Shown: piece by piece, positions 25,756 to 61,739 of the stretch | Position numbering within the stretch: position 1 is the first letter of the stretch | Layout: each line of letters opens with the position of its first letter | NCBI GenBank assembly: GCA_026395995.1 | Contig: JAPLXQ010000010.1 | Coordinates: forward strand, 2,587-66,586 | From: Candidatus Nomurabacteria bacterium | GTDB taxonomy: Bacteria > Patescibacteriota > Minisyncoccia > Phycocordibacterales > UBA9973 | Direction: 5' to 3' | DNA length: 64,000 nt | Translations under genes and position numbers: made by a program | The notes under the pieces: model-generated | Database searches by the model: none | Told to the model about the DNA's origin: nothing | Seen by the model: the letters and a program-made list of their open reading frames with translations, nothing else

Positions 25756-25779
25756 CACGCACTTCCGTATTAAACTTTT

Positions 25780-27342: not shown

Positions 27343-27354
27343 AATAATTGGGAT

Positions 27355-29205: not shown

Positions 29206-29261
29206 TGTGTAATTTTAGCACTTTTTAATTAAAAACCTATTTTTATGGGATAGATTATCTG

Positions 29262-29475: not shown

Positions 29476-29479
29476 ATTA

Positions 29480-29860
29480 TTAAAGCCCATGACTATGCAA
29501 ACAAAAGGTATACTCTTTTTCGGTAGCTTTTCTTGTTCTCTTTTCAGTATCTATTATTTTAGGTTGTGACTTTTCCCATTCCGCTGGTGTTTGAAAGTCT
29601 GAAAGGGTTAGTGGTGTTTTAGGAGAACTATAATTAAATGTTGGAGTAGTTGAGTTAGCATAGATTTCTTGTTCATAGTTTATCCAAGAACAATTATGTT
29701 TTATTATTGCTGGTCTTACTTGAAACCAGCCAAACAAAATAATAATTACTATTACTATTGCCATTACTTTTCTTTTCTTTGCTAATTCACTTTTAATTTC
29801 TCTCATTCTATCTACAAAAAGTTCTTGTATTTTTTTCATATTTTGGTCCTCATTATTCAT
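29480..29860 (-). CDS. Small membrane protein (single TM)
   Basis: ORF track. Confidence 0.3.
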   Translation of the reverse strand: MNNEDQNMKKIQELFVDRMREIKSELAKKRKVMAIVIVIIILFGWFQVRPAIIKHNCSWINYEQEIYANSTTPTFNYSSPKTPLTLSDFQTPAEWEKSQPKIIDTEKRTRKATEKEYTFCLHSHGL

Positions 29861-30249
29861 ATTTTAATTAAAAAGATAATTATAAAAATCACTAGAACTG
29901 ATAAAAATAAGGACCAATTAAATAATCTTGTAAGAGCAGTTTCTGTATTTTTATCTATTGAGTTAACTGATTGAGTAGTTAGTTGGTTTGTATTCTCTGT
30001 TTTAGGTACGACTGTTATTTTTTCTGCTTGTTTAGCTTCTTGAGTTGGAATAACTTGTTCATTTTTTATTTCTGGTTGTTGTGCTTTAGTTGGAGCTGGT
30101 TTTATTGTAACTTGTTTAGCTTTGGTTTTATTTACCAAATCTTGTAGCTGATATAATGCATCATTACCAACTGTTGATGTTAGTGAATTTGCATGGGAAA
30201 TTCCCGGAATAATCATGGCTAGTATTAAAATTAAGATATATTTCTTCAT
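29857..30249 (-). CDS. Small secreted/membrane-anchored protein (signal peptide + C-terminal TM)
   Basis: Start set at MKKYILILILAMIIPGISHA; 4-bp overlap with downstream gene. Confidence 0.3.
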   Translation of the reverse strand: MKKYILILILAMIIPGISHANSLTSTVGNDALYQLQDLVNKTKAKQVTIKPAPTKAQQPEIKNEQVIPTQEAKQAEKITVVPKTENTNQLTTQSVNSIDKNTETALTRLFNWSLFLSVLVIFIIIFLIKI

Positions 30250-30524
30250 AAGATTTTTGTTATTTTTAATCCTATGAGTAGAAATCAAAAATCCCACCAC
30301 ATAGGTGAGAGCTTTCGCTCTCTGCATCCGTTTCCAGATACAGCTCGTCAAAGCATCCCTATATGATGGGGTTTCTAGCTTTGACGAGACTTTCGGCCAT
30401 GTCTTTATTTCTAAAGGGTTAGGCCACTTATATATTAAATTGTATGTTTATGATAACATATTTATATCTCTTATTGAATTAACTATTTACTTTAAGTCGG
30501 GGATACACCGCTTATTGAATATCA

Positions 30525-32305: not shown

Positions 32306-32378
32306 TGCGAGGTACAGGACTCGAACCTGTGACCTTCCCGGTGTAAACGGGTTGCTCTACCAACTGAGCTAACCTCGC
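32306..32378 (-). tRNA. tRNA-Val (anticodon TAC)
   Basis: Acceptor GCGAGGT/ACCTCGC, anticodon loop TTTACAC, T-arm ACAGGTTCGAGTCCTGT, CCA encoded. Confidence 0.8.
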
Positions 32379-47235: not shown

Positions 47236-47421
47236 ATGTCAAAAATCAAAGATTATTTCACAGAAACAAAGTTAGAATTAAAGCATGTAAATTGGCCTAC
47301 TAGAGTCCAGACTATTTATTACACAATAATAGTGGCGGTTCTTTCTGTCGGCTTGGCTTATATATTAGGTTTTTTTGATTTTCTATTTTCTAAAGGTCTA
47401 GAAAAAGTAATTTCACTATAA
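47236..47421 (+). CDS. secE: Preprotein translocase subunit SecE
   Basis: Small single-TM protein immediately upstream of nusG. Confidence 0.7.
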   Translation: MSKIKDYFTETKLELKHVNWPTRVQTIYYTIIVAVLSVGLAYILGFFDFLFSKGLEKVISL

Positions 47422-47440
47422 TAATTAATTTAAATAATTT

Positions 47441-47986
47441 ATGGCTAAACAAGAAACACAAGGAGAAAGAAATTGGTACGCTATCCACACTTATGCTGGA
47501 TACGAAAACGCTGTTTTGAGAAATTTAAAACAACGTATCGAATCTCTAGGTATGCAAGAAAAGATTTTTAATGTCATTGTACCGATTGAGAAAAAAGTAA
47601 AAATTAAAGGAAATAAACGTGTCGAAGTAGAAGAGAAAATTTATCCAGGATACGTACTAGTAGATATGATTGTGACTGACGACTCTTGGTATGTAGTCCG
47701 TAATACTCCTCGTGTCACAGGATTCGTCGGAGCAGGAGTAAATCCAGTTCCATTAAAAAAAGAAGAAGTTGATTATTTGTTTAAGAAAATGGACGCTGGT
47801 ACTACAAAACACAATATTGATTTAGCGATAGATGAGACAGTAATGATAGTAGATGGTCCGTTTAAAGAATTGGAAGGTAAGGTAAATGCAATTGATCAAG
47901 AAAGAGGAAAAGTAAAAGTCTTAGTTTCAATGTTTGGTCGTGAAACTCCAGTCGAATTAGACTTCTTGCAAGTAAAAAAGATTTAA
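47441..47986 (+). CDS. nusG: Transcription termination/antitermination factor NusG
   Basis: NWYAIHTYAGYEN NGN domain, C-terminal KOW. Confidence 0.85.
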   Translation: MAKQETQGERNWYAIHTYAGYENAVLRNLKQRIESLGMQEKIFNVIVPIEKKVKIKGNKRVEVEEKIYPGYVLVDMIVTDDSWYVVRNTPRVTGFVGAGVNPVPLKKEEVDYLFKKMDAGTTKHNIDLAIDETVMIVDGPFKELEGKVNAIDQERGKVKVLVSMFGRETPVELDFLQVKKI

Positions 47987-48002
47987 TATAGTATAAAAAT
48001 AT

Positions 48003-48428
48003 ATGGCAAAGAAAATAACAAAGAAAATTAAATTACAAATTATGGGTGGCCGAGCAACTCCTGCTCCTCCTCTTGGTCCCGCCCTTGGACAGGCTGGTAT
48101 AAACATTGGTGATTTCGTTACCAAATTTAATGCCGCTACATCAAAGATGATGGGCGAAAAGGTAGGATGTATTGTGTCTGTTTACGAAGATCGTACTTAT
48201 GATTTCGTTATTAAGACTCCTCCTGCTACAGACCTTATCCTTAAGGCTGCCGGTGTAGAAAAAGGTTCAGGAAAGCCTAATACAGCTAAAGTCGGAAAGA
48301 TTACTCGTGCTCAGGCACTAGAAATCGGAAAGAAAAAAGCTGTTGACCTTAATGCTAAAGATGATGAAGGATTAATCGCTATTATCGCAGGATCAGCTAG
48401 ATCTGCTGGTATCGAAGTAAAAGGTTAA
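48003..48428 (+). CDS. rplK: 50S ribosomal protein L11
   Basis: IKLQIMGGRATPAPPLGPALGQAGINI. Confidence 0.9.
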   Translation: MAKKITKKIKLQIMGGRATPAPPLGPALGQAGINIGDFVTKFNAATSKMMGEKVGCIVSVYEDRTYDFVIKTPPATDLILKAAGVEKGSGKPNTAKVGKITRAQALEIGKKKAVDLNAKDDEGLIAIIAGSARSAGIEVKG

Positions 48429-48437
48429 TACTAAAAT

Positions 48438-48472
48438 TTAAAAGAGCCCCGCCTTACGGCGGGGCTCTTTAC
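48438..48472 (+). terminator. Rho-independent terminator after rplK
   Basis: agagccccgccttacggcggggctcttt. Confidence 0.6.
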
Positions 48473-48534
48473 TTTTTGTGTTTGAAATGGTAATTTAAAA
48501 ATGAATTCATTGTTAAACTAAATAAATTTTTAAA

Positions 48535-49146
48535 ATGGAACTTATAAAAAGTATTGCATTTGATGCAGACGATACTATTATCTATACGTTAGAAATGTTG
48601 AATAATTTTTACAATGCTAAATATAATAAAAAATTTAGCATTGAGGACTATACTTCATACGATTTGTATAAAATATGGGGAGTTAGTTATGAACAAACAG
48701 TAGAAGATATTCGTATGTTTTATGACAGTGAATTTTATAGGAAGATTAAAACAACTACAGGTGCTCATGAAGCAGTAAGTTACTTGTCTAAAAAATATGA
48801 TCTTCATATTGTTACTTCACGAAGTAAAGATGCAGAAGAATATCTTAACTTTACTTTATCAAAATTATTTTTGCCAGATCATTTTTTGGATATACATTCG
48901 ATAGGTTATGGGCCGGATTCATCTATGTGTAAATGGGAGAAGTGTAAAGAAATAAATACACCAATACTTATAGATGACCATCATGGACATTTGATTTCTG
49001 CAGCAGAACAAGGAATACACGGAATATTAATTCCAGCACCTTGGAATAAAAACATTACAGGTCTACCAAAGGAAATTTTTCGTGTGAGAAATTTAAGTGA
49101 AGCAGTAGAGGTAATTGAAAAGAACCAAAAAATAATTTGGAAATAA
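48535..49146 (+). CDS. HAD-superfamily phosphatase, 5'(3')-deoxyribonucleotidase (NT5C)-like
   Basis: DxDxT motif FDADDTI at N-terminus; context in dNTP cluster; terminator hairpin 49150-49180. Confidence 0.45.
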   Translation: MELIKSIAFDADDTIIYTLEMLNNFYNAKYNKKFSIEDYTSYDLYKIWGVSYEQTVEDIRMFYDSEFYRKIKTTTGAHEAVSYLSKKYDLHIVTSRSKDAEEYLNFTLSKLFLPDHFLDIHSIGYGPDSSMCKWEKCKEINTPILIDDHHGHLISAAEQGIHGILIPAPWNKNITGLPKEIFRVRNLSEAVEVIEKNQKIIWK

Positions 49147-49206
49147 TAAAAAGAGCCCTAGCATTAGGGCTCTTTTCTTTTACTTTTATTGTTGTATACT
49201 TTGCAT

Positions 49207-49695
49207 ATGTCAGAAAACTATAAAAGACCATCTTGGGACGAATACTTTTTAGAAATAATGGACACAGTAGCCAAGAGAGCTAGCTGTGATAGGGGACGCT
49301 CAGGCTGCGTTATTGTCAAAGATAATAGAATCCTTGCTACTGGGTATGTCGGTGCTCCGGCAGGAGTAAAAAGCTGTGATGATGCAGGACATGAAATGCA
49401 TACAGTAATCCATGCTGACGGTACTCAAACACAGCATTGTATTCGTACTGCTCATAATGAACAAAATGCTATTGTGCATGCTGCTCGTACCGGCGTCGCA
49501 CTTTTAGGTGGAACAATGTATTGTTATATGACTCCTTGTTATGCTTGTGCAAAGATGATTATTAATTCTGGGATTGTCAGAGTAGTAGCCAAGAAAGATT
49601 ATCATGCTGGAGAAAGATCAAAAGAAATATTTAAAGAAGCTGGAGTTAAATATGAACTTATAAATAATGAAGTCGAAAAATATACTAATCAATAA
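49207..49695 (+). CDS. dCMP deaminase (CDA-fold, ComEB-like)
   Basis: HNEQNAI and PCYACAKMI zinc-binding motifs; alternative start at 49189. Confidence 0.8.
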   Translation: MSENYKRPSWDEYFLEIMDTVAKRASCDRGRSGCVIVKDNRILATGYVGAPAGVKSCDDAGHEMHTVIHADGTQTQHCIRTAHNEQNAIVHAARTGVALLGGTMYCYMTPCYACAKMIINSGIVRVVAKKDYHAGERSKEIFKEAGVKYELINNEVEKYTNQ

Positions 49696-49705
49696 TTAAA
49701 ACTTT

Positions 49706-50038
49706 ATGTCTGTTGATCTAAAAGAATTACAAAAAGAGGTGATGAGGAATAAGATTGAAAAAGGTTTCAATACTACTGATGTAGCATTAGAATTTTGTCG
49801 AGCTCATGAAGAACTCTCAGAAGCTTTTTCAAAGTTTAATAAAAATCAAGACGGAGTAGCAGAAGAATTTGCTGATGTGGCTGTGTTCTTGCTCGGTATG
49901 TGTGAAATACTTGGTTATGATTTGGAAAAAGAATTGGTTCGAAAAATTGAAATAAATAAAAATCGTAAATATAAAAAAGCTAAATCTCCAGACGGTAAAG
50001 ATATTTTCATAAGAGAGAAAACAGACATAGATCCATAA
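49706..50038 (+). CDS. MazG-like nucleotide pyrophosphohydrolase
   Basis: EELSEAFSK...EEFADVAVFLLGMCE all-alpha NTP-PPase motifs; terminator 50046-50070. Confidence 0.65.
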   Translation: MSVDLKELQKEVMRNKIEKGFNTTDVALEFCRAHEELSEAFSKFNKNQDGVAEEFADVAVFLLGMCEILGYDLEKELVRKIEINKNRKYKKAKSPDGKDIFIREKTDIDP

Positions 50039-50071
50039 ATAATAAAAGGCCCCTTGTGGGGCCTTTTTAGA

Positions 50072-50569
50072 TTAAAATTTTATGTATTCTACAAATGAAT
50101 ACGACTTCTCATTCCTTTCGTCAGCATCGTATCTTTCACGATTTGTTTCTCCAAAAACTATTGGAATAATTTCCGGGAAAAATGCATCAGCGTCTTTGTC
50201 TGTCGCTTCTACATGAGTGATATATAGCTTGTCAGCAATTTTTATTGCTTCTCTGTATATTTGTTCACCGCCAGTAATAAAAGATTCTGTTACTGTTTCA
50301 TCTTGTCTAACTAGAGTGAGAGCATCTTCAAGTGAATGAACCACTTCGATGTCTGGAGCTGTATAGTCTACGTTACGAGTAATGACAATATTTCGTCTTT
50401 TTGGTAATGCTTTACCTAAAGATTCAAAGGTCTTGCGACCCATGATTATTGGATGTCCTGAAGTTATTTCTTGGAAATGTTTCAGGTCGGTCTTTAAACG
50501 CCATAGCAATTTATTATTTTTGCCGAGTTCGTTATTTTCACCTATAACTGCAATAATAGATATTTTCAT
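50072..50569 (-). CDS. folA: Dihydrofolate reductase
   Basis: ISIIAVIGENNELGKNNKLLWRLKTDLKHFQEIT...IIMGRKTFESLG. Confidence 0.85.
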   Translation of the reverse strand: MKISIIAVIGENNELGKNNKLLWRLKTDLKHFQEITSGHPIIMGRKTFESLGKALPKRRNIVITRNVDYTAPDIEVVHSLEDALTLVRQDETVTESFITGGEQIYREAIKIADKLYITHVEATDKDADAFFPEIIPIVFGETNRERYDADERNEKSYSFVEYIKF

Positions 50570-50572
50570 AAT

Positions 50573-51529
50573 TTATACAGCTATTGGTGCTTTAATCATC
50601 GGATGAGGGTCATATCCAATAAGCTCAAAATCTTCAAAGACAAAATCTTCTATATTTTTTACTTCAGGATTTATTTTCATTGTCGGCATGCTACGAATTT
50701 CATTTTTACGTGAAATCTGAAGGTTTGCTTGTTCAAGATGGTTTGAATATAAGTGTGTATCTCCACCAGTCCAAATAAATTCTCCGAGTTCAAGTCCAGT
50801 GACTTGTGCCATCATCATAGTAAGTAATGCATATGAAGCAATGTTGTAAGGTACACCTAAAAAGGTATCACAACTTCTTTGATATAACAGACAAGATAAT
50901 TTATTGTCAGCTACATAAAACTGGAATATACAATGACATGGTGGAAGACCACTTACAGCCATTGCATCTAAGTCAGCAACATTCCATGCAGATACTATCA
51001 TTCTTCGAGAATCAGGTTGTTTTTTTAATTGTTCAATGACAATTTTGATTTGATCGATATGTCCACCATTTGGTGTTGGCCAGTTCCTCCATTGGTAACC
51101 ATAGATTGGTCCAAGGTCTCCATTTTCTTTTGCAAAAACTGGATCAGTTTTTATTTTTTCTACATATTCTTTCAATCCAGTTTTCCATTCATCACTTTCT
51201 GTCTTTGGTACAGGGATACCATTTTTCTTCAAATATGCTTTGTATGGCCATTCGTCCCAAATACCTACACCGTTATCAGCTAGATATTTTAAGTTTGTAT
51301 CACCACGTAAGAACCAAATCAATTCATGAATGATTCCTTTCATGTGTACTTTTTTTGTTGTTAGGAGAGGGAAGCCATTTGCTAGATCGAATCGCATTTG
51401 ATATCCGAAGACACTTTTTGTACCTGTTCCTGTACGATCAGTTTTTGTCGCACCACTTTGTAAGATATGTTCCAATAATTTTAAATACTGGTTATCTACA
51501 TGATTGTTGTTATCCATATTTTCCATTGT
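50573..51529 (-). CDS. thyA: Thymidylate synthase ThyA
   Basis: [20 protein letters not shown] catalytic Cys motif; upstream ORF extension likely non-coding. Confidence 0.9.
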
Positions 51530-51724
51530 ACTATATTTATTATAGTTAAGGTAATTATTTACTTTGAGTTTAGCATAATATAAATCTTTGTATATTTGAC
51601 AAAATAAGTACAAAATGCTATTCTTTTACTATCACTCTCATCTATTAAATAACGAGACTGAAACCTGTGGAAATCAATTATGACTTTTGTGTCGTGCGAT
51701 TGGTTACCATGACACAAAAATTAT

Positions 51725-53104
51725 ATGATAAAAACACGCAGTTTCGCGCGTCCGGCTTCGGCTCGACCGCATGCTCCTTCTGCTCGCCCAGCGAGAAGTG
51801 GAGCAGGTTACTCACATAGTGCACCACGTCACGCTAGTAGCGGGGCAGTTTCTCATCGTCCAGCAGCTAAACCAGCTTTTGGATCTAGACCTCATTCTGC
51901 TCCATCTGGAGGCAGAGCTTTTGGTAGTAACAGACCTAGTTTTAAAGGACGAGGTAATTTTGGACCAAAGAGAGGTGCAGGAGGAAAAAGATTTGGAGGA
52001 GAGAGAATAGATTATTCTCGCTTTATTAAAAAAGCAGTAAAAGTAGAAGAGAAGCCGTATGTTTCAAAACATACTTTTTCTGATTTTCCTTTTGATGCAG
52101 TTATTCAGAGAAATATCGCAAAGAAGGGTTACATTCATCCTCGCCCTATTCAAGACCAATCAATTCCTTCAGTTATTGCAGGTAAAGACGTTTTCGGTAT
52201 GGCAAATACAGGACAAGGAAAAACTGCAGCGTTCCTACTTCCACTTATAAATAAAGTAATGAAAAACAAAGAAGAGAAAGTCCTTGTACTTGCTCCTACT
52301 CGTGAACTTGCAATGCAAATTGAAGAAGACCTTCGCTCTATGGCATCTGGTTCAAAACTTTTCGGAGTTTGTGTCGTCGGTGGTATGCCAATCGATAAAC
52401 AAATTCGTGAAATAAAACACGGAGTATCTTTCGTTATCGGAACTCCAGGACGTGTAACTGATCTTATAAAAAGAAAAGTTCTCGACCTTGCTCCATACAA
52501 ATCTATCGTTCTCGATGAAGCTGACCGTATGCTAGATATGGGATTCCGCGATGATATGGTTTTCATTTTAGGAAAATGTGCAGAGCAAAGACAAACTCTT
52601 TTCTTCTCTGCTACTCTTTCTCCAGAAATTAAAAAACTTACAGAAAAATTCTTGAAAGATCCTATCTTTATATCTGTTATGACAGGGGAGACTTCAAAAA
52701 ATATTGATCAAGATGTTGTGAAATTTACTTCAAAAGAAGATCGTTTCGACAAACTTGTAGAAGTTTTGAAAAAAGATGGTTCTGATAAAGTTCTAATCTT
52801 CCGCGAAATGAAACATGCTTGTGATACTATTACAAAAGAACTTTCTGATGCTGGTTTCAAAGTTGGTTGTATTCATGGCGACAAACGTAGTCGTGATCGT
52901 ATCCGTACTTTGGATTTATTCAAGACTGATAAAATAAATATCCTTGTTGCGACAGACGTCGCAGCTCGTGGACTCGATATTCCCGATGTGACCCACGTCA
53001 TCAACTACGATATCCCGCAGACCTACGACACCTACGTCCACCGCATCGGCCGAACCGGTCGTGCTGACAAAAAAGGCAACGCGCTGACTTTCGTTCCGCA
53101 ATAA
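51725..53104 (+). CDS. DEAD-box ATP-dependent RNA helicase with GC-rich Arg/Ser/Gly-rich N-terminal extension
   Basis: Q-motif, Walker A ANTGQGKT, DEAD, SAT, HRIGRTGR. Confidence 0.85.
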   Translation: MIKTRSFARPASARPHAPSARPARSGAGYSHSAPRHASSGAVSHRPAAKPAFGSRPHSAPSGGRAFGSNRPSFKGRGNFGPKRGAGGKRFGGERIDYSRFIKKAVKVEEKPYVSKHTFSDFPFDAVIQRNIAKKGYIHPRPIQDQSIPSVIAGKDVFGMANTGQGKTAAFLLPLINKVMKNKEEKVLVLAPTRELAMQIEEDLRSMASGSKLFGVCVVGGMPIDKQIREIKHGVSFVIGTPGRVTDLIKRKVLDLAPYKSIVLDEADRMLDMGFRDDMVFILGKCAEQRQTLFFSATLSPEIKKLTEKFLKDPIFISVMTGETSKNIDQDVVKFTSKEDRFDKLVEVLKKDGSDKVLIFREMKHACDTITKELSDAGFKVGCIHGDKRSRDRIRTLDLFKTDKINILVATDVAARGLDIPDVTHVINYDIPQTYDTYVHRIGRTGRADKKGNALTFVPQ

Positions 53105-53168
53105 ATTTGACACTATTGTTATAGGTAGTATTATTAGCTTATTACTCAATTAAATAATATAAAAACAT

Positions 53169-53414
53169 ATGGACAACGTACCACACAATAAGCTATTTAG
53201 TGAAATGGACAAAGAAGAACTAAATAAAGCTGAAGAAATAATAAGAAAAAAATTAAAGCCTATGTCTACTGAATTTTATCAACTAGGTTTAATAAGTGAA
53301 CTTAACATGGAGTTTAAAGAAGCATTAGAGTACTACAAACAAGCATTGGCTTGTGATCCAAATAATAGTGTAGCAATTTTAAAAGTAAAAAACCTCGAGG
53401 AAAAATCAAAATAA
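53169..53414 (+). CDS. Small TPR-like protein
   Basis: ORF track; terminators 53425-53475. Confidence 0.3.
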   Translation: MDNVPHNKLFSEMDKEELNKAEEIIRKKLKPMSTEFYQLGLISELNMEFKEALEYYKQALACDPNNSVAILKVKNLEEKSK

Positions 53415-53552
53415 GAAAAAAGAGTGGCATTGAGTCACTCTTTTTAGTCTAAAAATCCTGCTTTGCAAGCGGGATTTTTTTCATATATAATCAATCTGTG
53501 ATTTAATGAGCTCCAAAACTTTATTACTATTTAACTTTTAACTATTTTTACT

Positions 53553-54725
53553 ATGAAAGATACACAAATAAAAAAATTAATAACAGCAGAAGGTAAAAGA
53601 CAGAAAAGTGTTATTAATTTAATCGCCTCAGAAAATTATGTTTCCAAAGATGTTTTAGCGGCTCTCGGTTCAGTCCTTACAAATAAATATGCAGAAGGGT
53701 ATCCAGGACGAAGATATTATGGAGGAAATGAAATTATTGATAAAGTAGAAACTCTAGCTATCGATCGTGCGTTAAAACTTTTTAAATTAAAACCAGACGC
53801 ATGGCATGTGAATGTTCAGCTCCTTTCTGGAAGTCCTGCGAATTTTGCATTGTATTCTGCTCTCGTACCTATCGGTGGAAAAATAATGGGAATGAAATTA
53901 ACTTCTGGTGGACATCTCACACACGGACATCCACTTTCTATGACAGGTAAACTTTGGAAACCGATTCAATTCGAACTCGACCCAAAAACAGAAGTCATCG
54001 ATTATGATGCAATTGAAAAATTAGCAATACAAGAAAAGCCAGATATTATCGTCGCTGGTTTTACCGCATATCCACGCGTTGTTGATTTTAAAAAGTTTAG
54101 ATCTATCGCTGACAAATGCGGAGCATTATTACATATCGATATGTCTCACTTTGCAGGACTTGTCGCAGGGGGAGTGTATCCATCTCCATTTCCATATGCA
54201 GACAGTGTGATGACTACTACTCACAAATCTCTCCGTGGTCCGAGACAAGCAATTCTTTTTGTAAAAAAAGATGAACGTGGTTTTGATAAAAAATTAGATA
54301 AGATGGTAATACCTGGACTCTTTGGTGGTCCACATGAAAACAATATTGCCGGAGTTGCGATAGCACTCAAAGAAGCTGACACTCCAGCCTTTAAAAAATA
54401 CGCAAAACAAGTTATTAAAAATGCGCAAACATTAGCAAAAGAATTACAACGTTTAGGCTGGAAAATAGTTTCTGGTGGCACTGATTCACACTTGATATTG
54501 ATGGATACTTTTTCTTCAAATGGTGTTACAGGTAGTGATGCTAGTAAAAAGCTTGAAAAAGCAGGGATAATAGTAAATATGAATACTGTTCCAGGGGACA
54601 CACGTTCTGTTATGGATCCATCTGGTATTCGCCTAGGTACTTGTGCAGAAACAACAATAGGTAAAAAAGAAAAAGATATGATTAAAATAGCACAGAAGAT
54701 GGATAAAGTATTAAGAGGTAAATAA
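53553..54725 (+). CDS. glyA: Serine hydroxymethyltransferase
   Basis: NLIASENYVSKDVLAALGSVLTNKYAEGYPGRRYYGGNE. Confidence 0.9.
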   Translation: MKDTQIKKLITAEGKRQKSVINLIASENYVSKDVLAALGSVLTNKYAEGYPGRRYYGGNEIIDKVETLAIDRALKLFKLKPDAWHVNVQLLSGSPANFALYSALVPIGGKIMGMKLTSGGHLTHGHPLSMTGKLWKPIQFELDPKTEVIDYDAIEKLAIQEKPDIIVAGFTAYPRVVDFKKFRSIADKCGALLHIDMSHFAGLVAGGVYPSPFPYADSVMTTTHKSLRGPRQAILFVKKDERGFDKKLDKMVIPGLFGGPHENNIAGVAIALKEADTPAFKKYAKQVIKNAQTLAKELQRLGWKIVSGGTDSHLILMDTFSSNGVTGSDASKKLEKAGIIVNMNTVPGDTRSVMDPSGIRLGTCAETTIGKKEKDMIKIAQKMDKVLRGK

Positions 54726-54728
54726 TTT

Positions 54729-55139
54729 ATGAAGATATTTATCTGCACAAGTAAACATTTATATAATCAGATTCCTCCTATAAAAGAATCTCTTGAAAAA
54801 AGTGGTCACATTATAACTTTACCAAATAGTCTTGATAATCCTTTGAAAGAGCAAGAAATGAAAACAGTAGGAACAGCAGAACATTCAAAATGGAAAGGAG
54901 AGATGCTTCGACTTCAAAAAGAAAAAGTTAACATGAATGATGCAATTTTAGTTTTAAATTTTGAAAAGAACGGACAGGCGAATTATATTGGAGGAGCTAC
55001 ATTTTTAGAAATTTACATGGCTTTTGAATTAGGTAAAAAGATATTTTTGTATAATCCAATTCCAGAAAGCTTTTTAAAAGATGAATTGCTGGGGATGAAC
55101 CCTTTTATTATTAATGGTGATTTAAGTTTAATAAAATAA
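54729..55139 (+). CDS. Possible nucleoside 2-deoxyribosyltransferase-like (flavodoxin-fold) protein
   Basis: MKIFICTS start, size and context; weak. Confidence 0.3.
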   Translation: MKIFICTSKHLYNQIPPIKESLEKSGHIITLPNSLDNPLKEQEMKTVGTAEHSKWKGEMLRLQKEKVNMNDAILVLNFEKNGQANYIGGATFLEIYMAFELGKKIFLYNPIPESFLKDELLGMNPFIINGDLSLIK

Positions 55140-55143
55140 TTTT

Positions 55144-55833
55144 ATGAAAAAAGGAAAATTAATTGTAATAGACGGTACGGACGGAAGTGGAAAGGCGACA
55201 CAGGTAGAATTACTTCGTTTACGTTTAGTAAAAGAAGGCTATAAAGTAAAGACTGTAGATTTCCCGGAATACTATAAAAATTTCTTCGGCAACTTTATTG
55301 GTCACTGTTTGAGTGAGCAATATTTTAATTTTGTGAAAGTTCATCCTAAAATAGCTTCTGTCTTATATGCAGCCGATCGTTGGGAATCATCTGATCAAAT
55401 TGATGGGTGGTTGAAATCTGGGTGCATAGTTATTGCCAATAGATATGTTTCAGCTAATCAAATTCACCAGGGTGGAAAAATAACAAATGCTAAAAAAAGA
55501 AAAGACTTTTTACGTTGGCTGGATGATATGGAATATAGGGTTTTCGGTATACCGAGACCAGATGTAGTAATTTATTTGGAGGTTCCAATCAAGGTTACCC
55601 AAAAATTAATGATTGAACGTGATGCAAAAAACGCTAGACAGTATTTAAAGAAAAAGGGAGATGTTCACGAAAATGACCCAGTCTTTTTGGAAAATTCACG
55701 TAAGAGTGCATTGAAACTTATCAAAGAATTAAATAACTTTATAAAAATTTCTTGCGTAAAAGGTTTTAATATGAGAGCTAGAGAAGATATTCATGAAGAT
55801 GTATATTTAGAAATTAAAAAAGTTTTAAAATAA
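55144..55833 (+). CDS. Thymidylate kinase-like (d)NMP kinase
   Basis: P-loop LIVIDGTDGSGKATQ, DRY-like ANRYVSANQIHQG. Confidence 0.6.
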   Translation: MKKGKLIVIDGTDGSGKATQVELLRLRLVKEGYKVKTVDFPEYYKNFFGNFIGHCLSEQYFNFVKVHPKIASVLYAADRWESSDQIDGWLKSGCIVIANRYVSANQIHQGGKITNAKKRKDFLRWLDDMEYRVFGIPRPDVVIYLEVPIKVTQKLMIERDAKNARQYLKKKGDVHENDPVFLENSRKSALKLIKELNNFIKISCVKGFNMRAREDIHEDVYLEIKKVLK

Positions 55834-55834
55834 T

Positions 55835-56245
55835 ATGAAAATATATTTTGCAGGATCAATACGAGGAGGAAGAGATGACAAAGATATTTATGCTGATATT
55901 ATTTCTTTACTGAAAAAATATGGCCCAGTACTGAGTGAACATATAGGCGACAAAAATCTTTCAAGTCAAGGTCAAACGTCAATGACGAATGAACAAATTT
56001 ATCAGAAAGATGTTAATTGGATTAATGAATCTGATATTATCATTGCTGAAGTTACAAACCCATCACTTGGTGTTGGTTATGAATTAGGCCTTGCTGAATC
56101 TCTTAAAAAGAAAATTATTGCCTTATACAGAGTAGTAGACGGTAAAAGGCTTTCCGCAATGGTAGCAGGAAATAGTAATATTACTTGTATAGAATATACC
56201 GAAGTTTCTGAATTAGATAAAATATTTGAAGAAATTTTTAAATAA
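55835..56245 (+). CDS. 2'-deoxynucleoside 5'-phosphate N-hydrolase (DNPH1/Rcl) / nucleoside 2-deoxyribosyltransferase family
   Basis: MKIYFAGSIRGGR N-terminus characteristic of DNPH1; ...EVTNPSLGVGYELGLAE. Confidence 0.65.
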   Translation: MKIYFAGSIRGGRDDKDIYADIISLLKKYGPVLSEHIGDKNLSSQGQTSMTNEQIYQKDVNWINESDIIIAEVTNPSLGVGYELGLAESLKKKIIALYRVVDGKRLSAMVAGNSNITCIEYTEVSELDKIFEEIFK

Positions 56246-56254
56246 TATTTATCG

Positions 56255-56285
56255 CTTAAAAAGCCCGAGTTATCTCGGGTTTTTA
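56255..56285 (+). terminator. Rho-independent terminator
   Basis: aaaagcccgagttatctcgggttttt. Confidence 0.6.
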
Positions 56286-56299
56286 TTTTTCTTATAATT

Positions 56300-56737
56300 A
56301 TGTACAATGAAAACATGCAGTTTAAGATCAAAAAATTGAAAGAAGGTGCGAAATTACCTAGTTATGCAAACCCGGGGGATGTGGGTATGGATTTGTATTC
56401 TATGGAAAATGTTACTTTGGCTCCTATGGAACATACTATTTTAAATCATGGTTTTGCTTTAGAATTCCCTGAAGGATACGGAGGTTTTGTTATGGACAAG
56501 GGAAGTATTTCAAAAGCAGGGCTCAAAGTTATGGGTGGGGTATATGATGCAGGGTATAGAGGCGAATACAATACACATCTGGTTAATTTGTCTGATAAAT
56601 CATATACTATCGAAGTAGGAGATAAAGTTTCTCAACTAGTCATCACTCCTGTCGTAATAGGCGAGATAGAGGAGGTGAATGAACTTTCAGAATCTGTTCG
56701 CGGAGAGGGTAGATATGGTTCAACTGGTAGAAAATAA
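56300..56737 (+). CDS. dut: dUTP diphosphatase
   Basis: dUTPase motifs PGDVGMDL, GGFVMDKGSISK, RGEGRYGSTG. Confidence 0.85.
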   Translation: MYNENMQFKIKKLKEGAKLPSYANPGDVGMDLYSMENVTLAPMEHTILNHGFALEFPEGYGGFVMDKGSISKAGLKVMGGVYDAGYRGEYNTHLVNLSDKSYTIEVGDKVSQLVITPVVIGEIEEVNELSESVRGEGRYGSTGRK

Positions 56738-56800
56738 GATCTCACCCCCAACCCCTCTCCTTATAAAGGAGAGGGGCGCCGGGATGGAATACACAATATA

Positions 56801-58552
56801 ATGAAACAAAAAATAATAAATTTAATAAAAGATGCTTTGAATAAACTCGAAATAGGTGAGGTGAATTTTGTCGTGGAACATCCAGAAGATTTCAAGAATG
56901 GAGACTATTCTACGAACGTAGCGATGGTTTGTGCGAAGCAATTGAAAATGAATCCACGTGAACTTGCAGAAAAAATTTCTGCAGAAATTATGAAGCACCC
57001 CCTCCGGCTTTCAGTCACCTCCCCCTTAGCTAAGGGGGAGGGCTGGGGTGGGGGTGTTGAAAAAATAGAAGTCGCCGGCGCAGGGTTTATAAATTTCTAT
57101 ATTTCAAAAGAATATTTTCAAAAAGAATTAGCAAATATAATAACTTTAGCTGATAAATACGGATCCTCAGATTTAAATAAAGGAAAGAAAATTTTAGTTG
57201 AACATTCTAGTCCGAATTTATTTAAGCCATTTCACGTCGGGCATATGATGAATAATGCTATCGGTGAATCTATTACTCGACTCGCACATTTTTCTGGTGC
57301 GGAAGTAAAAGCTATTTCTTTCCCGTCTGATATTTCTCTCGGAGTAGCTAAAGCAATTTTTATAATTTTAGAAAAACAAATTGATGGTGAGGTTTTTAAA
57401 CCAGTAGATATCGTTGCATTAGGTGATGCTTATGTAGAAGGCACGAAGAGATATGATGAAGATGAATCTATCCATGCTCGTGTAAAAGAAATTGCTGATA
57501 ATCTATACTCTGAAAAAGACTCTCCAGAATTCAGCGCTTTTGTCGCTTGTAAAGAATTCAATATGGAATATTTTAAAAATATTACAAAACGTCTCGGTTC
57601 AGAATTTGATGGATATATTTACGAGAGTGAGGCTGGTATCATAGGTAAAAAAATGGTTTTAGAAAATACTCCTGCTATTTTTACCGAGAGTGAAGGCGCC
57701 GTCGTTTATATTCCAGAAGAAACAAAAAAATACATCAATACTGCCGTGTTTATAAACAGTCAAGGCAATCCTACTTATGAAGCGAAAGACCTCGGCCTTC
57801 TCGATTTAAAATTTGAAAAATATAATCCAGACCTTTCTATTTTTATTACAGACCATCAACAGATTTCTCATTTCGCTGTCGTTCTCGATGCTGTAGAAAA
57901 AATAAATAAAAGCTGGGTAGAGAGAAGTGTTCACCGAACACATGGACGTATGACATTCAAAGGACAAAAAATGTCTTCACGTCTCGGGGGAGTTCCACTC
58001 GTTGCTGATATTTTAGAGACAGTCCTTGCTGAAGTTTCTGAACGTACAAAAGACAGAGATACAGTAGACACACGTGAGAATCCAGAAGCTATCGCTGTCG
58101 GCGCACTAAAGTTCGCTATTCTCCGTGCTCAAGCAGGGAAAAATATCGACTTTGATCCAGATACTTCACTTTCATTCGAAGGGGATTCAGGTCCGTATTT
58201 ACAATACACTGGTGTCCGTGCAAATTCTGTACTAGCGAAGGCACCCCTCCTCAATCCTCCCCTTGGCAAATGGGAGGAAGGACTCAATAATTTAGAAATC
58301 ACCGATGTAGAAAAAATACTTGCTCGTTTTCCGGAAGTCGTCGAAAATTCTATCACTAATTGGGCTCCACATTATGTCACGACATATTTATGTGAATTAG
58401 CGCAATCATTCAACAGCTGGTATGCACATACTCAAATTATCGATGAAGCTAATCCAAATATGAATTACAATTTAGCTATCACTAAATCAGTTGCTCAAGT
58501 AATGCAAAACGGCCTTTGGCTTCTCGGCATTGAACTTCCAGAGAGAATGTAA
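56801..58552 (+). CDS. argS: Arginine--tRNA ligase with in-frame GC-rich insertion(s)
   Basis: HSSPNLFKPFHVGHMMN (HIGH), DALR anticodon-binding C-terminus; insertion 56997-57056. Confidence 0.9.
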   Translation: MKQKIINLIKDALNKLEIGEVNFVVEHPEDFKNGDYSTNVAMVCAKQLKMNPRELAEKISAEIMKHPLRLSVTSPLAKGEGWGGGVEKIEVAGAGFINFYISKEYFQKELANIITLADKYGSSDLNKGKKILVEHSSPNLFKPFHVGHMMNNAIGESITRLAHFSGAEVKAISFPSDISLGVAKAIFIILEKQIDGEVFKPVDIVALGDAYVEGTKRYDEDESIHARVKEIADNLYSEKDSPEFSAFVACKEFNMEYFKNITKRLGSEFDGYIYESEAGIIGKKMVLENTPAIFTESEGAVVYIPEETKKYINTAVFINSQGNPTYEAKDLGLLDLKFEKYNPDLSIFITDHQQISHFAVVLDAVEKINKSWVERSVHRTHGRMTFKGQKMSSRLGGVPLVADILETVLAEVSERTKDRDTVDTRENPEAIAVGALKFAILRAQAGKNIDFDPDTSLSFEGDSGPYLQYTGVRANSVLAKAPLLNPPLGKWEEGLNNLEITDVEKILARFPEVVENSITNWAPHYVTTYLCELAQSFNSWYAHTQIIDEANPNMNYNLAITKSVAQVMQNGLWLLGIELPERM

Positions 58553-58637: not shown

Positions 58638-61600
58638 ATGTACTCAATAAAACGGGCGCGTTTGTTGTTTATTTTTATCACTAGCTTTATTAGTGTTTTT
58701 TATTTTTCAGCTCATTGTGCCTTGGCTGGCACGAATGTGACTGATGATATTACTTCCAATACTACGTGGACTGTCGCAGAGAGTCCATATATTGTGAGTA
58801 CGAATTTGTATATTGCCCCCAGTACCATACTCACTATCGAGCCAGGTGTCGTAGTAAAGTTTGAAAATAATTCTAGTATAAATTCCGCCGGTGATATCAT
58901 AGCGAATGGAAATATAAATAATAAAATAACCTTCACTTCTATTTTAGATGATTCAATAGCCGGAGATACAAATGAAGATTCTGATAATACCATTCCAAAT
59001 AAAAATGATTGGGATGGTATTTATTTTAATAGCTCTCATAATTCGTCTTTTACTTATGTGAACTTTAAATATGCTACCGATCTTTTAACTACAGATACTT
59101 CAGACATTAATTTACAAAATATTGATATTTATGAAAGTAATACTGGAATTTATTCTTATGATAATAGTAATATTACAATTACTAATGCTACCGCACAAAA
59201 TATCACCAGTGATGTTTTGTTTGCTTATAATCATACTAATATATTAGTGGACAATATTACTATTCAAGATATAGATGAAGCTGCTGTTGAAATTCTTGAG
59301 GGTAGTAGGCTAACTATTAACAACTCTTCTGTTAAAAATGTTTCACAATATGGAGCTTTTTTTATTTATGGTAATAGTTTTTTGATAGGCGATCATTTAG
59401 ACGTTGAAGATGTTTTTGGTAGTTCTCAGGACACAATAGACGTAGTAAATCATAGTAATTTATTGATTGATCATTCTACTTTTAAAAATTGCCCAGGGGA
59501 TTCGTGTATAGCTTTTTATGATAGTAATAGCTATTTGAATAATCCTTCGAGTGTGAGTGCTTATAATACATTATTCGATACTGGGGCAGGGTCAGCATTT
59601 ATTACTTTTGGAAATAGCCTAGTCACCGCTAATATTCAAAACTGCACGATTAAAAATTTTGATTATTTGGGAATTAGAAATTATGGTCCAGCAGTGCTAA
59701 ATGCTATCAATAATTATTGGGGTGATGCTACTGGGCCATACCATCCAGATTTGAATCCATCTGGGCTCGGTAATGGTGTTTCGAATAATGTCGACTTTAT
59801 TCCTTTTAAGATTACTGATCCACTCATCTCTCATAATCCAGTGATATTGATACCCGGAATTATGGGCTCATATTTAAATAAAAATTTTGGTGACATGGGT
59901 GAATTGTGGCCGAATATTAATACTTTGATAACATCGATTTCTGATGATTTTTTAAATGATCTTGCTTTGCGACCAGATGGCACTGAAGATCCAGCTAAGC
60001 CAATACAAGTAGGAGATATTATTCGTAGTATCAATGTCACTCTGCCTGGAATAAATAGTGTCTCACATAGCTTTGATGGATTGATAAATGAATTGACCAA
60101 TGGTGGCTATGTAGAAAATACTGACTTGTTTGTCTTTCCATATGATTGGCGAAAAGATGATGCGGAGGCAGCGATTTTGCTCGACAGCAAAATCGCTGCC
60201 GTCCTCTCCCAGACCGGCGCCTCCAAAGTAGATATTGTGGCTCACAGTATGGGCGGGCTCGTCACGAAAAAATATATTTCTGATCACGGCGCCGGCCTGA
60301 TAGACAAACTCGTCTTCATTGGCACTCCGCACCTCGGTGCACCGAAAGCTTATAAAGTACTAACTTATGGAGATGATATGGGAATAAATTATTGGAAACT
60401 TAGTTTATTAAGTCCAAGTAGGGCAAAATATATTTCTCAAAATATGCCAGGGGTTTTTGATCTTTTGCCGAGTGAAAAATATATTAATGATAATGGGTCT
60501 TATGTGATAAATGCCAAAAATAATCCTGTGCAGAATTTGAATTATTCTGAGACGAAAGATTTTATGAATACTCAAGGACGGAATATTTCAATGTTTACAC
60601 CAGCTGAAAGTTTGCATAATGATACAGACAATTTAAATTTACTAAATACAGATGTGTACAATTTTGTTGGTTGTGGTAAGACGAAAACGATTGGCAAAAT
60701 ACGAGTGGGGAAGAAGAGAGATTGGACACACCTTGGACTGACATGGAAAGACGATGTAATTATTTCATATACGAATGGTGATGAGACAGTGCCACTGTCT
60801 TCGGCTACTAGTGTCGACGCTCTCAATGAATACTTTGTGAAAAATATTTCACATATGGATTTGCCTTCAGCGGATGGATTGAGGCAAGATGTATTGGCTA
60901 TTCTCACGGGTGCTGATTTACCGAGCTCACCAGTGGTTTTGTCTGATGTGGGTGATTGTACGACTTCTGGGCACACTGTATCTGTCCACAGCCCAGCGAC
61001 ACTCGATATTTATGATAGCTTCGGCAATCATACAGGATTGAATACTGATGGTGACATTGAGTACGGCGTTCCGGGAGTATCTTATGATATTTTTGATGAT
61101 GTGAAATATGCATTTTTACCAGATGGGCAAAATTATCGAATTGTGAACCATGCTACAGATACAGGAGGGTATAGTTTGAATATTGATAATGTGGCAAACA
61201 ATGATGACATTACAAATTCTTTTTCTTGGAATCTTGTACCATTACAGACTTTGAATACAAATACTGAAATAAATATTGGCCCAGATTATCCTGAAAATGA
61301 TTATGTATTAAAGGCCGATGAAGATGGTAATGGAAGCTTTGAGAAAACTTTTCCTTTGAATTTTGATGGCACTAGCCTGGCTGAAAAAACAGAAGAAAAA
61401 CTTCATCATTCTAGTGGTGGTAGTGTTTTATCAATATTAAATAAAAAGGATGATGATAAAAAAGAAAACCTAGAAGAAAAAAATATTTCTGAATTGAATT
61501 CCGAATCCCAAAGGTCGGTCCTTAAGAATTTGGCTGTTAAAGGACCAACCTTAACGAATTCTGTATTTAAAAGGTCGTTCCTTAAAGGAGTTCAAGGTGC

Positions 61601-61739
61601 GACCTTAATACATTTAAACCCTGAGTCTGCATCCCAAACGGCCTCTGCAATAAATTCTGGTTTTAAAATTAAAGATATTTTAATAGTTCTTTCTGTTTGT
61701 ATTTTAGCTTTTATTATTGGCAAAAAATTGGTAAAATAG
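58638..61739 (+). CDS. Large secreted protein: N-terminal right-handed beta-helix region, central alpha/beta-hydrolase (lipase/LCAT-like, AHSMGG), C-terminal repeat-containing segment and TM anchor
   Basis: Signal peptide, GxSxG AHSMGG with PVILIPGIMGS oxyanion region, C-terminal hydrophobic helix. Confidence 0.55.
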   Translation: MYSIKRARLLFIFITSFISVFYFSAHCALAGTNVTDDITSNTTWTVAESPYIVSTNLYIAPSTILTIEPGVVVKFENNSSINSAGDIIANGNINNKITFTSILDDSIAGDTNEDSDNTIPNKNDWDGIYFNSSHNSSFTYVNFKYATDLLTTDTSDINLQNIDIYESNTGIYSYDNSNITITNATAQNITSDVLFAYNHTNILVDNITIQDIDEAAVEILEGSRLTINNSSVKNVSQYGAFFIYGNSFLIGDHLDVEDVFGSSQDTIDVVNHSNLLIDHSTFKNCPGDSCIAFYDSNSYLNNPSSVSAYNTLFDTGAGSAFITFGNSLVTANIQNCTIKNFDYLGIRNYGPAVLNAINNYWGDATGPYHPDLNPSGLGNGVSNNVDFIPFKITDPLISHNPVILIPGIMGSYLNKNFGDMGELWPNINTLITSISDDFLNDLALRPDGTEDPAKPIQVGDIIRSINVTLPGINSVSHSFDGLINELTNGGYVENTDLFVFPYDWRKDDAEAAILLDSKIAAVLSQTGASKVDIVAHSMGGLVTKKYISDHGAGLIDKLVFIGTPHLGAPKAYKVLTYGDDMGINYWKLSLLSPSRAKYISQNMPGVFDLLPSEKYINDNGSYVINAKNNPVQNLNYSETKDFMNTQGRNISMFTPAESLHNDTDNLNLLNTDVYNFVGCGKTKTIGKIRVGKKRDWTHLGLTWKDDVIISYTNGDETVPLSSATSVDALNEYFVKNISHMDLPSADGLRQDVLAILTGADLPSSPVVLSDVGDCTTSGHTVSVHSPATLDIYDSFGNHTGLNTDGDIEYGVPGVSYDIFDDVKYAFLPDGQNYRIVNHATDTGGYSLNIDNVANNDDITNSFSWNLVPLQTLNTNTEINIGPDYPENDYVLKADEDGNGSFEKTFPLNFDGTSLAEKTEEKLHHSSGGSVLSILNKKDDDKKENLEEKNISELNSESQRSVLKNLAVKGPTLTNSVFKRSFLKGVQGATLIHLNPESASQTASAINSGFKIKDILIVLSVCILAFIIGKKLVK

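Follow-up and report, generated by a model that had tools for sequence, protein, structure and literature searches.

The role of DNPH1 (Rcl), which destroys 5-hydroxymethyl-dUMP before it can enter DNA, was recognized recently, in human cancer cells. In the human enzyme with bound 5-hydroxymethyl-dUMP, the catalytic triad consists of Y24, D80 and E104; the base is held by I29 and I76 and read by R30 and H56; E55 of the LTEHV motif is required for the hydrolytic step; and S98 and S128′ bind the phosphate (PMC10603095). The present analysis concerns a gene block (positions 48535-56737 of a 64,000-nucleotide stretch of DNA from Candidatus Nomurabacteria, referred to as the window) in which the gene for a prokaryotic orthologue of this enzyme directly follows that for a kinase of the thymidylate kinase (Tmk) family, among genes for thymidylate synthesis. 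Other described systems also resemble the block. The classical thymidylate arrangement has thyA and folA adjacent and co-oriented, as they are here, and the T4-type pathway leads from dCTP to dCMP (by a pyrophosphatase), to dUMP (by a deaminase) and to dTMP (by thymidylate synthase, TS). In the DmtZ/DutZ/MazZ modules of Z-genome phages, an N-glycosidase for deoxynucleoside 5′-monophosphates (dNMPs) with the fold of nucleoside 2-deoxyribosyltransferases (NDTs) accompanies an enzyme of the dUTPase fold and a pyrophosphatase of the MazG type, sometimes as a fusion; the NDT-fold enzyme hydrolyzes a dNMP and moves the deoxyribose 5-phosphate to another base (PMC12884076).

Unlike the classical and T4-type arrangements, the block holds all steps, including those of glyA, tmk and dut, within 8 kb; its pyrophosphatase is a MazG-like protein of 110 amino acids (aa) and not Dcd or a gp56-type enzyme, and it additionally encodes a DNPH1 orthologue, an NT5C-like nucleotidase and an NDT-fold protein. 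Whereas the Z-genome modules are phage-encoded and serve genome-wide base replacement, the block is chromosomal, is kept in a bacterial lineage, and contains a canonical ThyA and no base-replacement enzyme. It is read here as the thymidylate branch of Candidatus Nomurabacteria in a neighborhood conserved within the lineage, with the DNPH1-Tmk pair acting as a gate on the thymidylate pool, and not as a hypermodification system; we give this reading a probability of roughly 70%. Overall, this is ordinary thymidylate metabolism with modestly novel accessory enzymes: the pathway is textbook and the enzymes belong to known families. Some aspects are new in a modest sense: in bacteria, a strict DNPH1 orthologue keeps a conserved position with Tmk and is repeatedly fused to it; a large NDT-fold family, so far without a name, is typical of the ultra-small prokaryotes; and the database names of two genes (those of the DNPH1 orthologue and the thymidylate kinase) are corrected.

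The DNPH1 orthologue and the adjacent kinase

The two genes are adjacent on the forward strand (scores in bits are given with the gathering cut-off, GA, of the respective family):

55144-55833 (+): Tmk-family kinase, 229 aa (PF02223, 68.5 bits; GA 27)
55835-56245 (+): DNPH1 (Rcl) orthologue, 136 aa (PDB 2khz, E=4.8e-34; PF05014, 68.6 bits; GA 28.8)

The product of the second gene aligns through residues 2-119 with rat Rcl (2khz) and also matches human DNPH1 (9da1/8os9, E=1.3e-31); identity to the rat and human proteins is ~50% over residues 2-120. Its residues Y4, I9, R10, E35-H36, D59, S77, E83 and S107 correspond to human Y24, I29, R30, E55-H56, D80, S98, E104 and S128, and lie in part in the motifs LSEHI (LTEHV in the human protein), PSLGVGYE (containing S77) and KRLSAM (containing S107). 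The serines that bind the 5′-phosphate are thus present, and not the Asp of nucleoside transferases. In 25 prokaryotic orthologues the functional residues are invariant or nearly so, the triad being invariant. The likeness to the metazoan proteins (2khz, 4fyh, 8os9, 9da1) therefore comprises the triad, both phosphate serines, the Arg and the Glu-His of LTEHV, and also the length of the core (~136 aa). The window protein differs in that it is prokaryotic, is encoded directly after tmk (and elsewhere fused to Tmk), has none of the disordered N- and C-terminal tails seen in the mammalian protein, and carries Glu in place of human Asp73. By these residues, it is a DNPH1 orthologue and predicted to be a 2′-deoxynucleoside 5′-phosphate N-hydrolase. 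Its GenBank name, “nucleoside 2-deoxyribosyltransferase,” is that of the Pfam family and not of the likely activity.

Hallmarks of Tmk are a P-loop with Asp (DGxDGxGK), a DR motif, a (D/N)RYxxS motif and the arginines of the LID. The best PDB match of the kinase is the thymidylate kinase (TMPK) of Mycobacterium tuberculosis (1g3u, E=8e-13), and it was also aligned to 4unp; the aligned regions include the Asp-bearing P-loop, the FPxY segment, the DR motif, RYVxSN and the LID, with IDGTDGSGKAT, AADRWES, ANRYVSAN and ERDAKNAR as the letters of the four hallmark motifs in the window protein. These features point to a thymidylate kinase of the M. tuberculosis TMPK type, and the protein is taken as such here.

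In a scan of one genome per prokaryotic species, at least 581 loci carried a DNPH1 orthologue; they belong to bacteria of the candidate phyla radiation (CPR), Bacteroidota, Dehalococcoidia, Marinimicrobia, Ignavibacteria and several archaea. The surroundings of the best 80 of these at least 581 species-level loci were compared with the window proteins by tblastn. Dut was found beside DNPH1 at 19 of the 80, Tmk at 18, serine hydroxymethyltransferase (SHMT) at 15, ThyA at 14, dihydrofolate reductase (DHFR) at 13 and the dCMP deaminase at 10, followed by the MazG-like protein (6/80), the 136-aa NDT-fold protein encoded just upstream of tmk in the window (2/80) and the NT5C-like protein (1/80). 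When the neighbors within 2 kb of DNPH1 at the same 80 loci were clustered without any query, the 229-aa Tmk was the commonest (19) and Dut the second (14); NUDIX, CYTH and P-loop kinase-like proteins came next. All thymidylate-linked DNPH1 loci among the 80 are from Paceibacteria-like genomes; outside of these, DNPH1 had no recurrent neighbor.

Among relatives, the order of tmk and the DNPH1 gene is shuffled while their adjacency is kept (offsets of −700 and +430 to +1400). In a sister genome (GCA_026395955.1), most block genes of which are 95-99% identical to those of the window, a different gene of the Tmk family (~197 aa) stands in the place of tmk, and this gene is fused in frame to the DNPH1 gene (10458-11462, 334 aa; cluster P0393). 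Three more clusters of Tmk-DNPH1 fusions (P0439, P0450 and P0487; 357-367 aa) have a kinase half of the window's 229-aa type, with P0439 being 55% identical to the window kinase and 63% to the window DNPH1. The two types of Tmk found in the fusions are only 27% identical to each other. A Dut-Tmk fusion (P0494) was observed as well. As DNPH1 is fused to two Tmk lineages, and as adjacency survived the changes in order, the comparison supports a functional coupling of Tmk and DNPH1. It also suggests an old and general link between DNPH1 and the thymidylate pool, and the natural fusions offer simple bacterial proteins for testing the role of DNPH1. A literature search on prokaryotic DNPH1 and on thymidylate clusters of CPR bacteria returned nothing relevant, although published work may still exist.

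In the proposed mechanism, the DNPH1-Tmk pair would form a gate on the thymidylate pool. Tmk would forward dTMP to dTDP, and DNPH1 would cleave look-alike dNMPs, which Tmk would otherwise phosphorylate, into the base and deoxyribose 5-phosphate. Such look-alikes may include 5-hydroxymethyl-dUMP, as in human cells, and possibly dUMP; their source could be oxidation, or the action of the dCMP deaminase on modified dCMP that stems from scavenged DNA. De novo synthesis of nucleotides is generally reported to be missing from CPR bacteria (PMC10221324), so a scavenging lifestyle stays plausible, and scavenging would provide a reason to police the dNMP pool.

The same description also speaks for the main competing explanation, namely that the block serves the catabolism or salvage of deoxynucleotides. 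The kinase would then be a deoxynucleoside kinase or a broad dNMP kinase, and DNPH1, the NT5C-like protein and the 136-aa protein would break down dNMPs from host or environmental DNA, with free bases as products for re-use and deoxyribose 5-phosphate as a source of carbon or energy. We consider this unlikely. It agrees with the GenBank label of the kinase (“deoxynucleoside kinase”) and its weak match to the deoxynucleoside kinase family PF01712 (25.5 bits), with the presence of two dNMP-destroying activities (NT5C-like and DNPH1) in one block, with the NUDIX, CYTH and P-loop kinase-like genes among the neighbors of DNPH1 in CPR bacteria, and with a ComEC gene near DNPH1 on another contig. However, the kinase carries the Tmk hallmarks, and only dTMP kinases are among its best matches in PDB and NCBIfam; neither deoC nor a nucleoside phosphorylase or phosphoribosyltransferase gene is present in the block; and a class II ribonucleotide reductase (RNR) is encoded in the window. 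Moreover, the characterized DNPH1 turns over canonical dNMPs slowly, according to one study (PMC10483697).

The thymidylate route and the surrounding gene block

The remaining genes of the block, the gene downstream of it, and the genes for the RNR and its neighbor are as follows:

48535-49146 (+): NT5C-like HAD 5′(3′)-deoxyribonucleotidase, 203 aa (PF06941, 32.5 bits; GA 24.8)
49189-49695 (+): ComEB-type dCMP deaminase (PF00383, 79 bits; TIGR02571, 107 bits)
49706-50038 (+): MazG-like all-alpha NTP pyrophosphohydrolase, 110 aa (PF12643, 25.8 bits, below the GA of 27)
50072-50569 (−): dihydrofolate reductase FolA (PF00186, 184 bits)
50573-51526 (−): thymidylate synthase ThyA, 317 aa (TIGR03284, 452 bits; cut-off 108)
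51725-53104 (+): DEAD-box RNA helicase (PF00270, 162 bits; PF00271, 120 bits)
53169-53414 (+): TPR protein, 81 aa (PF00515, 30.3 bits), absent from the first-pass annotation
53553-54725 (+): serine hydroxymethyltransferase GlyA (PF00464, 503 bits)
54729-55139 (+): NDT-fold protein, 136 aa (AlphaFold2 model, pLDDT 97.8; Foldseek)
56300-56737 (+): trimeric-type dUTPase Dut (TIGR00576, 112 bits; PF00692, 84 bits)
56801-58552: ArgS, downstream of dut
15022-17304 (−): class II (B12-dependent) ribonucleotide reductase with N-terminal ATP-cone (PF03477, PF17975, PF21995, PF02867)
14364-15014 (−): PduO-type cob(I)alamin adenosyltransferase, adjoining the RNR (PF01923)

The first-pass annotation, made from the sequence without database searches, had described the block as a nearly full thymidylate route plus sanitizing and salvage enzymes within ~8 kb. 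Every gene that it named is an intact open reading frame (ORF) at the coordinates listed here, and family searches support the set. The thymidylate branch is indeed encoded, its dCMP deaminase, Dut, ThyA, DHFR, SHMT and Tmk being assigned by family hidden Markov models (HMMs), and further nucleotide-pool enzymes (DNPH1 orthologue, MazG-like pyrophosphatase and NT5C-like nucleotidase) are present, too.

Judging by homology, dUMP would be supplied by the dCMP deaminase and by Dut, ThyA would methylate it to dTMP, FolA and GlyA would regenerate methylene-tetrahydrofolate, and the Tmk-family kinase would convert dTMP to dTDP. Because a class II RNR and an adenosyltransferase are encoded in the window, deoxynucleotides can come from ribonucleotides and do not have to be salvaged. 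The MazG-like protein, as a probable product of the same transcript as the deaminase, may turn dCTP made by this RNR into dCMP for deamination, and the NT5C-like phosphatase may remove dNMPs that are in excess or wrong.

The dCMP deaminase contains the zinc motifs HNE (HxE) and PCYAC (PCxxC); its true start is probably the ATG at 49207, and its position is kept in relatives. The MazG-like gene lies 10 nt after the end of that of the deaminase, and its product, which is 94-99% identical in several relatives, matches phrog_3301 (“pyrophosphatase,” E=3e-13) as well as PDB entries 1vmg (E=1.6e-4) and 4qgp (E=7e-4). The metal-binding motif EExxE(13)EExxD is present (EELSE...EEFAD). Its reaction would be the cleavage of dCTP (or dUTP) to the dNMP and pyrophosphate. 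The NT5C-like protein matches phrog_420 (96 bits) and also phrog_2643 (5′-3′ deoxyribonucleotidase); HAD motif I (DxDxT) is found as DADDT at residues 10-14 and the DD of motif IV within LIDDH near residue 147, and a search of PDB sequences gave no match. Its gene is a variable accessory, the single related locus among the 80 that carries it being that of the closest relative.

ThyA bears on whether the block could serve DNA modification. Asn177 of TS (Escherichia coli numbering) specifies dUMP, and Asp at this position marks dCMP-directed homologues. The window protein matches E. coli TS (1an5) with E=4e-116 and ~65% identity in the aligned regions. It retains Cys146/His147, Arg166/Ser167/Asp169, Asn177 and His207/Tyr209, its own Asn228 being the equivalent of Asn177, and the motifs PCH, YQRSCD, PYN and GGDTHLY are readily visible; among the residues kept are the catalytic Cys and the arginines that bind phosphate. 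An insert of ~37 residues (95-131) is located at the site of the Lactobacillus casei/Enterococcus-type insert in PDB synthases of 315-321 aa. By its active site, ThyA is assigned as a canonical dUMP methylase. Its gene lies 3 nt upstream of folA on the same strand.

The first-pass annotation had also raised a DNA-modification pathway and advised comparing the ThyA active site with hydroxymethylases; with Asn kept and every TS active-site motif present, this pathway loses its main support. Neither the block nor its immediate surroundings contain a gene for a hydroxymethylase, a glycosyl- or amino-transferase or another hypermodification enzyme. In this rival explanation, ThyA or a partner would produce a modified dNMP whose canonical competitor is cleared by MazG, DNPH1 and NDT-like enzymes, as happens in phages whose DNA is modified. 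Phage modification modules, for example DmtZ/DutZ/MazZ (PMC12884076), typically combine a MazG protein, an NDT-like enzyme and a TS, and homologues of the 136-aa protein occur on jumbo-phage-like contigs near a TS homologue with the dCMP-type Asp. Yet the window ThyA has Asn at the specificity position along with every catalytic residue of TS, the surroundings are chromosomal housekeeping genes, a hydroxymethylase, transferase and dedicated polymerase are absent from the block, and many free-standing Paceibacteria genomes share this block. The proposal is largely refuted already and scarcely credible; a hydroxymethylase or DNA-modification role was rejected on account of the canonical sequence of this ThyA.

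The phage-like contigs just mentioned are two IMG/VR entries, L090 (504 kb; positions 1-6420) and L091 (416 kb; positions 600-6504). Within ~6 kb, these contigs encode a dCMP deaminase, a 328-aa TS homologue, a PolIII-alpha/PHP protein and a protein that is 44-49% identical to the 136-aa protein and homologous to it. The TS homologues have Asp at the position of E. coli Asn177 (GYPYDVF), unlike the window ThyA. The C-terminal part of the PolIII-alpha/PHP protein appears intein-like by eye.

The window has a GC content of ~34%, seven tRNAs and bacterial housekeeping genes, and the block is flanked by secE-nusG-rplK (47236-48428) and by argS (56801-58552). Terminator-like hairpins divide it into a run of at least six transcription units, and a promoter-like site was found as well:

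48441-48470: terminator-like hairpin after rplK
49149-49176: terminator-like hairpin after the NT5C-like gene
50044-50067: bidirectional terminator-like hairpin between the convergent MazG-like gene and folA
53419-53482: two terminator-like hairpins after the TPR ORF
53463-53491: promoter-like site before glyA
56259-56284 (+): terminator-like hairpin closing the unit from glyA to the DNPH1 gene

Because of these hairpins the block is not one operon, and a single operon spanning it was rejected on that ground. The likely units are the NT5C-like gene alone (between the hairpins at 48441-48470 and 49149-49176), the dCMP deaminase with the MazG-like gene, thyA-folA on the reverse strand, the helicase, the TPR ORF, glyA with the genes of the 136-aa protein, Tmk and DNPH1, and finally dut, perhaps together with argS. 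The unit headed by glyA is tightly packed, with intergenic gaps of 3, 4 and 1 nt, and between tmk and the DNPH1 gene (the gap of 1 nt) there is no terminator. A search for riboswitches and leaders over 48300-57000 gave nothing credible; a match resembling a PyrR site (53372-53484) reached 31.7 bits, where the gathering score is 54, and overlaps the two terminator hairpins.

Three proteins of the block are identical to GenBank entries MCX6755307-09. In related Paceibacteria the gene order is largely kept at 50-80% protein identity, namely secE-nusG-rplK, dCMP deaminase, MazG-like, folA-thyA, helicase, glyA, tmk, DNPH1, dut, argS (loci L006, L087, L089, L008, L009, L017, L032 and others), and variants exist. 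As the same order recurs in relatives, the clustering is not due to chance; the block is a conserved feature of the lineage. The sister genome with the Tmk-DNPH1 fusion deviates further: its glyA is followed by an inserted aldo-keto reductase gene and an unrelated ORF of 136 aa, and its argS is broken up into two ORFs. The DEAD-box helicase is found at the same place in loci L006, L009, L068 and L089; it is syntenic and functionally unrelated to the thymidylate pathway. Its N-terminal tail (encoded by 51725-52010) comprises ~95 residues of low complexity rich in Arg, Ser, Gly, Ala and Pro, which is unusual at 34% GC.

Since unrelated genes such as those of the helicase and ArgS are conserved along with the pathway, synteny alone does not prove function. 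This is the core of another explanation, by which the block reflects plain synteny, and the accessory genes (DNPH1, 136-aa, NT5C-like and MazG-like) have no functional tie to thymidylate. Besides the conservation of the genes for the DEAD helicase, TPR protein, ArgS, RplK and NusG in the same block, the terminators that cut it into several units and the coming and going of the NT5C-like and 136-aa genes between relatives are in line with it. But recurrent in-frame fusions of DNPH1 with two kinds of Tmk are hard to explain without coupling, tmk and the DNPH1 gene are separated by 1 nt without a terminator, and they stayed adjacent in relatives despite shuffling of their order. Synteny without function therefore has a slim chance. 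In the first-pass annotation, a generic thyA-folA neighborhood conserved in relatives had been named as part of the outcome that would refute its reading. This applies by half: the neighborhood is in fact conserved in relatives together with unrelated genes, but DNPH1 is itself one of the conserved members.

Several observations weigh against the gated thymidylate branch. The substrates of the DNPH1, MazG-like, NT5C-like and 136-aa proteins are predictions. The human DNPH1 enzyme processes canonical dNMPs slowly, and nothing so far indicates that 5-hydroxymethyl-dUMP occurs in these bacteria. The kinase, which GenBank labels a deoxynucleoside kinase, scores below the NCBIfam cut-offs for dTMP kinases (NF005923, 103 bits vs 193; TIGR00041, 76.6 bits vs 83.25). 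In most phyla with DNPH1 (Bacteroidota, Dehalococcoidia, Marinimicrobia and archaea), its gene is not near tmk or dut, so that the linkage is clade-specific. The 136-aa family is near thymidylate genes only in close relatives, and at ~5 of 59 informative metagenome loci. Finally, part of the conservation is plain synteny, as the genes for the DEAD helicase, ArgS and RplK are conserved alongside.

A family of NDT-fold proteins in ultra-small prokaryotes

Two genes of the block had been called NDT/DNPH1-like beforehand. The call stands for the DNPH1 gene, as a strict orthologue that matches PF05014; for the 136-aa protein encoded at 54729-55139 it holds at the level of the fold and fails at that of the family HMM. 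Searches of Pfam (with E as high as 10), NCBIfam, PHROGs and, by phmmer, PDB sequences gave no match to this protein. Its homologues at E<=0.001 number 1932; almost every one is 136 aa long, and not one bears a Pfam domain or an informative name. Clustering at 50% identity left 979 representatives of the family. The protein itself does not reach the threshold of PF05014, and the link to that family is transitive: 33 of 57 diverse relatives match PF05014 at E<=0.1 (best 5e-7), and one (P0233) passes the Pfam cut-off (30.1 bits vs a GA of 28.8). A profile search of the PDB with the 136-aa family yielded NDTs at E=0.12-0.2 only.

It is the AlphaFold2 model by itself that settles the fold. Built from the alignment of 57 sequences, the model reached a pLDDT of 97.8 and a pTM of 0.90, and Foldseek matched it in the PDB to Chroococcidiopsis NDT, Bacillus subtilis YtoQ, Trypanosoma brucei NDT, BcmB, DNPH1 and MilB (E=1e-4 to 5e-3, TM 0.55-0.66); the best viral matches are annotated N-deoxyribosyltransferases (E=9e-7). 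As modeled, the protein has an NDT-type Rossmann-like fold and is a member of the superfamily at the fold level only. With the characterized members of the NDT superfamily PF05014 (8pqp/9emx; YtoQ, 8of6; BcmB, 4jen; MilB, 4ohb) it shares this fold and an aligned nucleophile, Glu94; it differs from them by lacking a sequence-family match of its own as well as the triad Tyr and Asp, and by a longer loop before the Glu.

The alignment of the 136-aa family with the DNPH1 family (hhalign, E=0.003) is colinear and pairs Glu94 with the nucleophile Glu (E83 of DNPH1), Phe4 with the triad Tyr and Gln63 with the triad Asp; as its probability is only 10%, the column of the triad Asp (Q63) is less certain. 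The position of E94 is occupied by Glu in 55 of 57 family representatives, that of the triad Tyr by F, A, T, V, L or M (never Tyr), and that of the triad Asp by H, S, Y, N, Q or D. The family's own conserved residues are S8, P32, D71, N77, K80, Y86, G88, E94, K103 and E119, and the loop before the nucleophile Glu is 7 residues longer in the window protein. In MilB, Phe at the position of the triad Tyr accompanies ribose and not deoxyribose substrates (PMC10603095). By analogy, the MilB-type Phe is a lead to the substrate of the 136-aa protein, not a result. Most likely, the protein acts on a nucleoside 5′-monophosphate, either by hydrolysis or by base exchange.

Members of the family also occur in fusions (P0146, P0151 and P0179) with CobU (cobinamide kinase/guanylyltransferase), MazG and RNase T-type exonuclease domains; in P0151, a tandem pair of 136-aa-family domains is fused to a MazG domain. 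These fusions are possible clues pointing to nucleoside monophosphates or base exchange. In some genomes, relatives of the 136-aa protein are encoded beside Tmk, DNPH1, NDK or NUDIX proteins, and the commonest neighbor at metagenome loci is the small subunit of archaeal replication factor C (RFC; 13 loci; Rep_fac_C, 67.9 bits). With RFC the commonest neighbor and thymidylate genes nearby at so few loci, the context does not fix the function of the family. It is common to CPR bacteria and DPANN archaea at 60-70% identity (metagenome loci L093-L172; P0035, P0082), which suggests transfer between two groups of ultra-small symbionts. The family is highly conserved and occurs mostly in bacteria and archaea with the smallest genomes, which live on scavenged nucleotides; its substrate would help to explain how these balance their pools.

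The accessory proteins can be combined into a broader proposal, which is tentative and on balance unlikely: Tmk and DNPH1 would form an ancient gate against nucleotide analogues, from CPR bacteria to humans, and the 136-aa family would be the cellular counterpart of DmtZ. If this were true, the gate would be needed as ultra-small symbionts feed their dCMP deaminase and Tmk with nucleotides scavenged from foreign, modified DNA, and the Tmk-DNPH1 fusions would be the first genomic evidence for such a role outside animals. The 136-aa family could then be a base-exchange or N-glycosidase enzyme for nucleoside 5′-monophosphates, possibly, with Phe at the Tyr position, one acting on ribonucleotides. 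It would allow its hosts to convert nucleotides into one another although they do not make them de novo.

Further features of the window

Elsewhere in the window, a probable integrated or defense island (25220-32378) extends between two tRNA genes. Its features, including an RNA element located between a small ORF and the gene of a large serine recombinase, are as follows:

25220-25296: tRNA-Arg(tct)
25780-27342: AbiV-type HEPN protein
27355-29205 (−): OLD-family protein with ATPase and TOPRIM nuclease
29857-30351 (−): small ORF
30307-30425 (−): LOOT RNA (Rfam RF03000; 88 bits, gathering score 46.4)
30525-32372: large serine recombinase, the 3′ end of its gene overlapping that of tRNA-Val
32303-32378: tRNA-Val(tac)

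Two paralogous ORFs of ~220 aa each (4951-5625 and 21346-22011, both +) have similar N-termini, and the former matches the IS200-like Y1 transposases (PF01797, 34 bits). Beyond argS, 58638-61739 (+) encodes a secreted or membrane-anchored protein of 1033 aa with a right-handed beta-helix region and an LCAT/PGAP1-like lipase domain, which is found at the same place in the sister genome.

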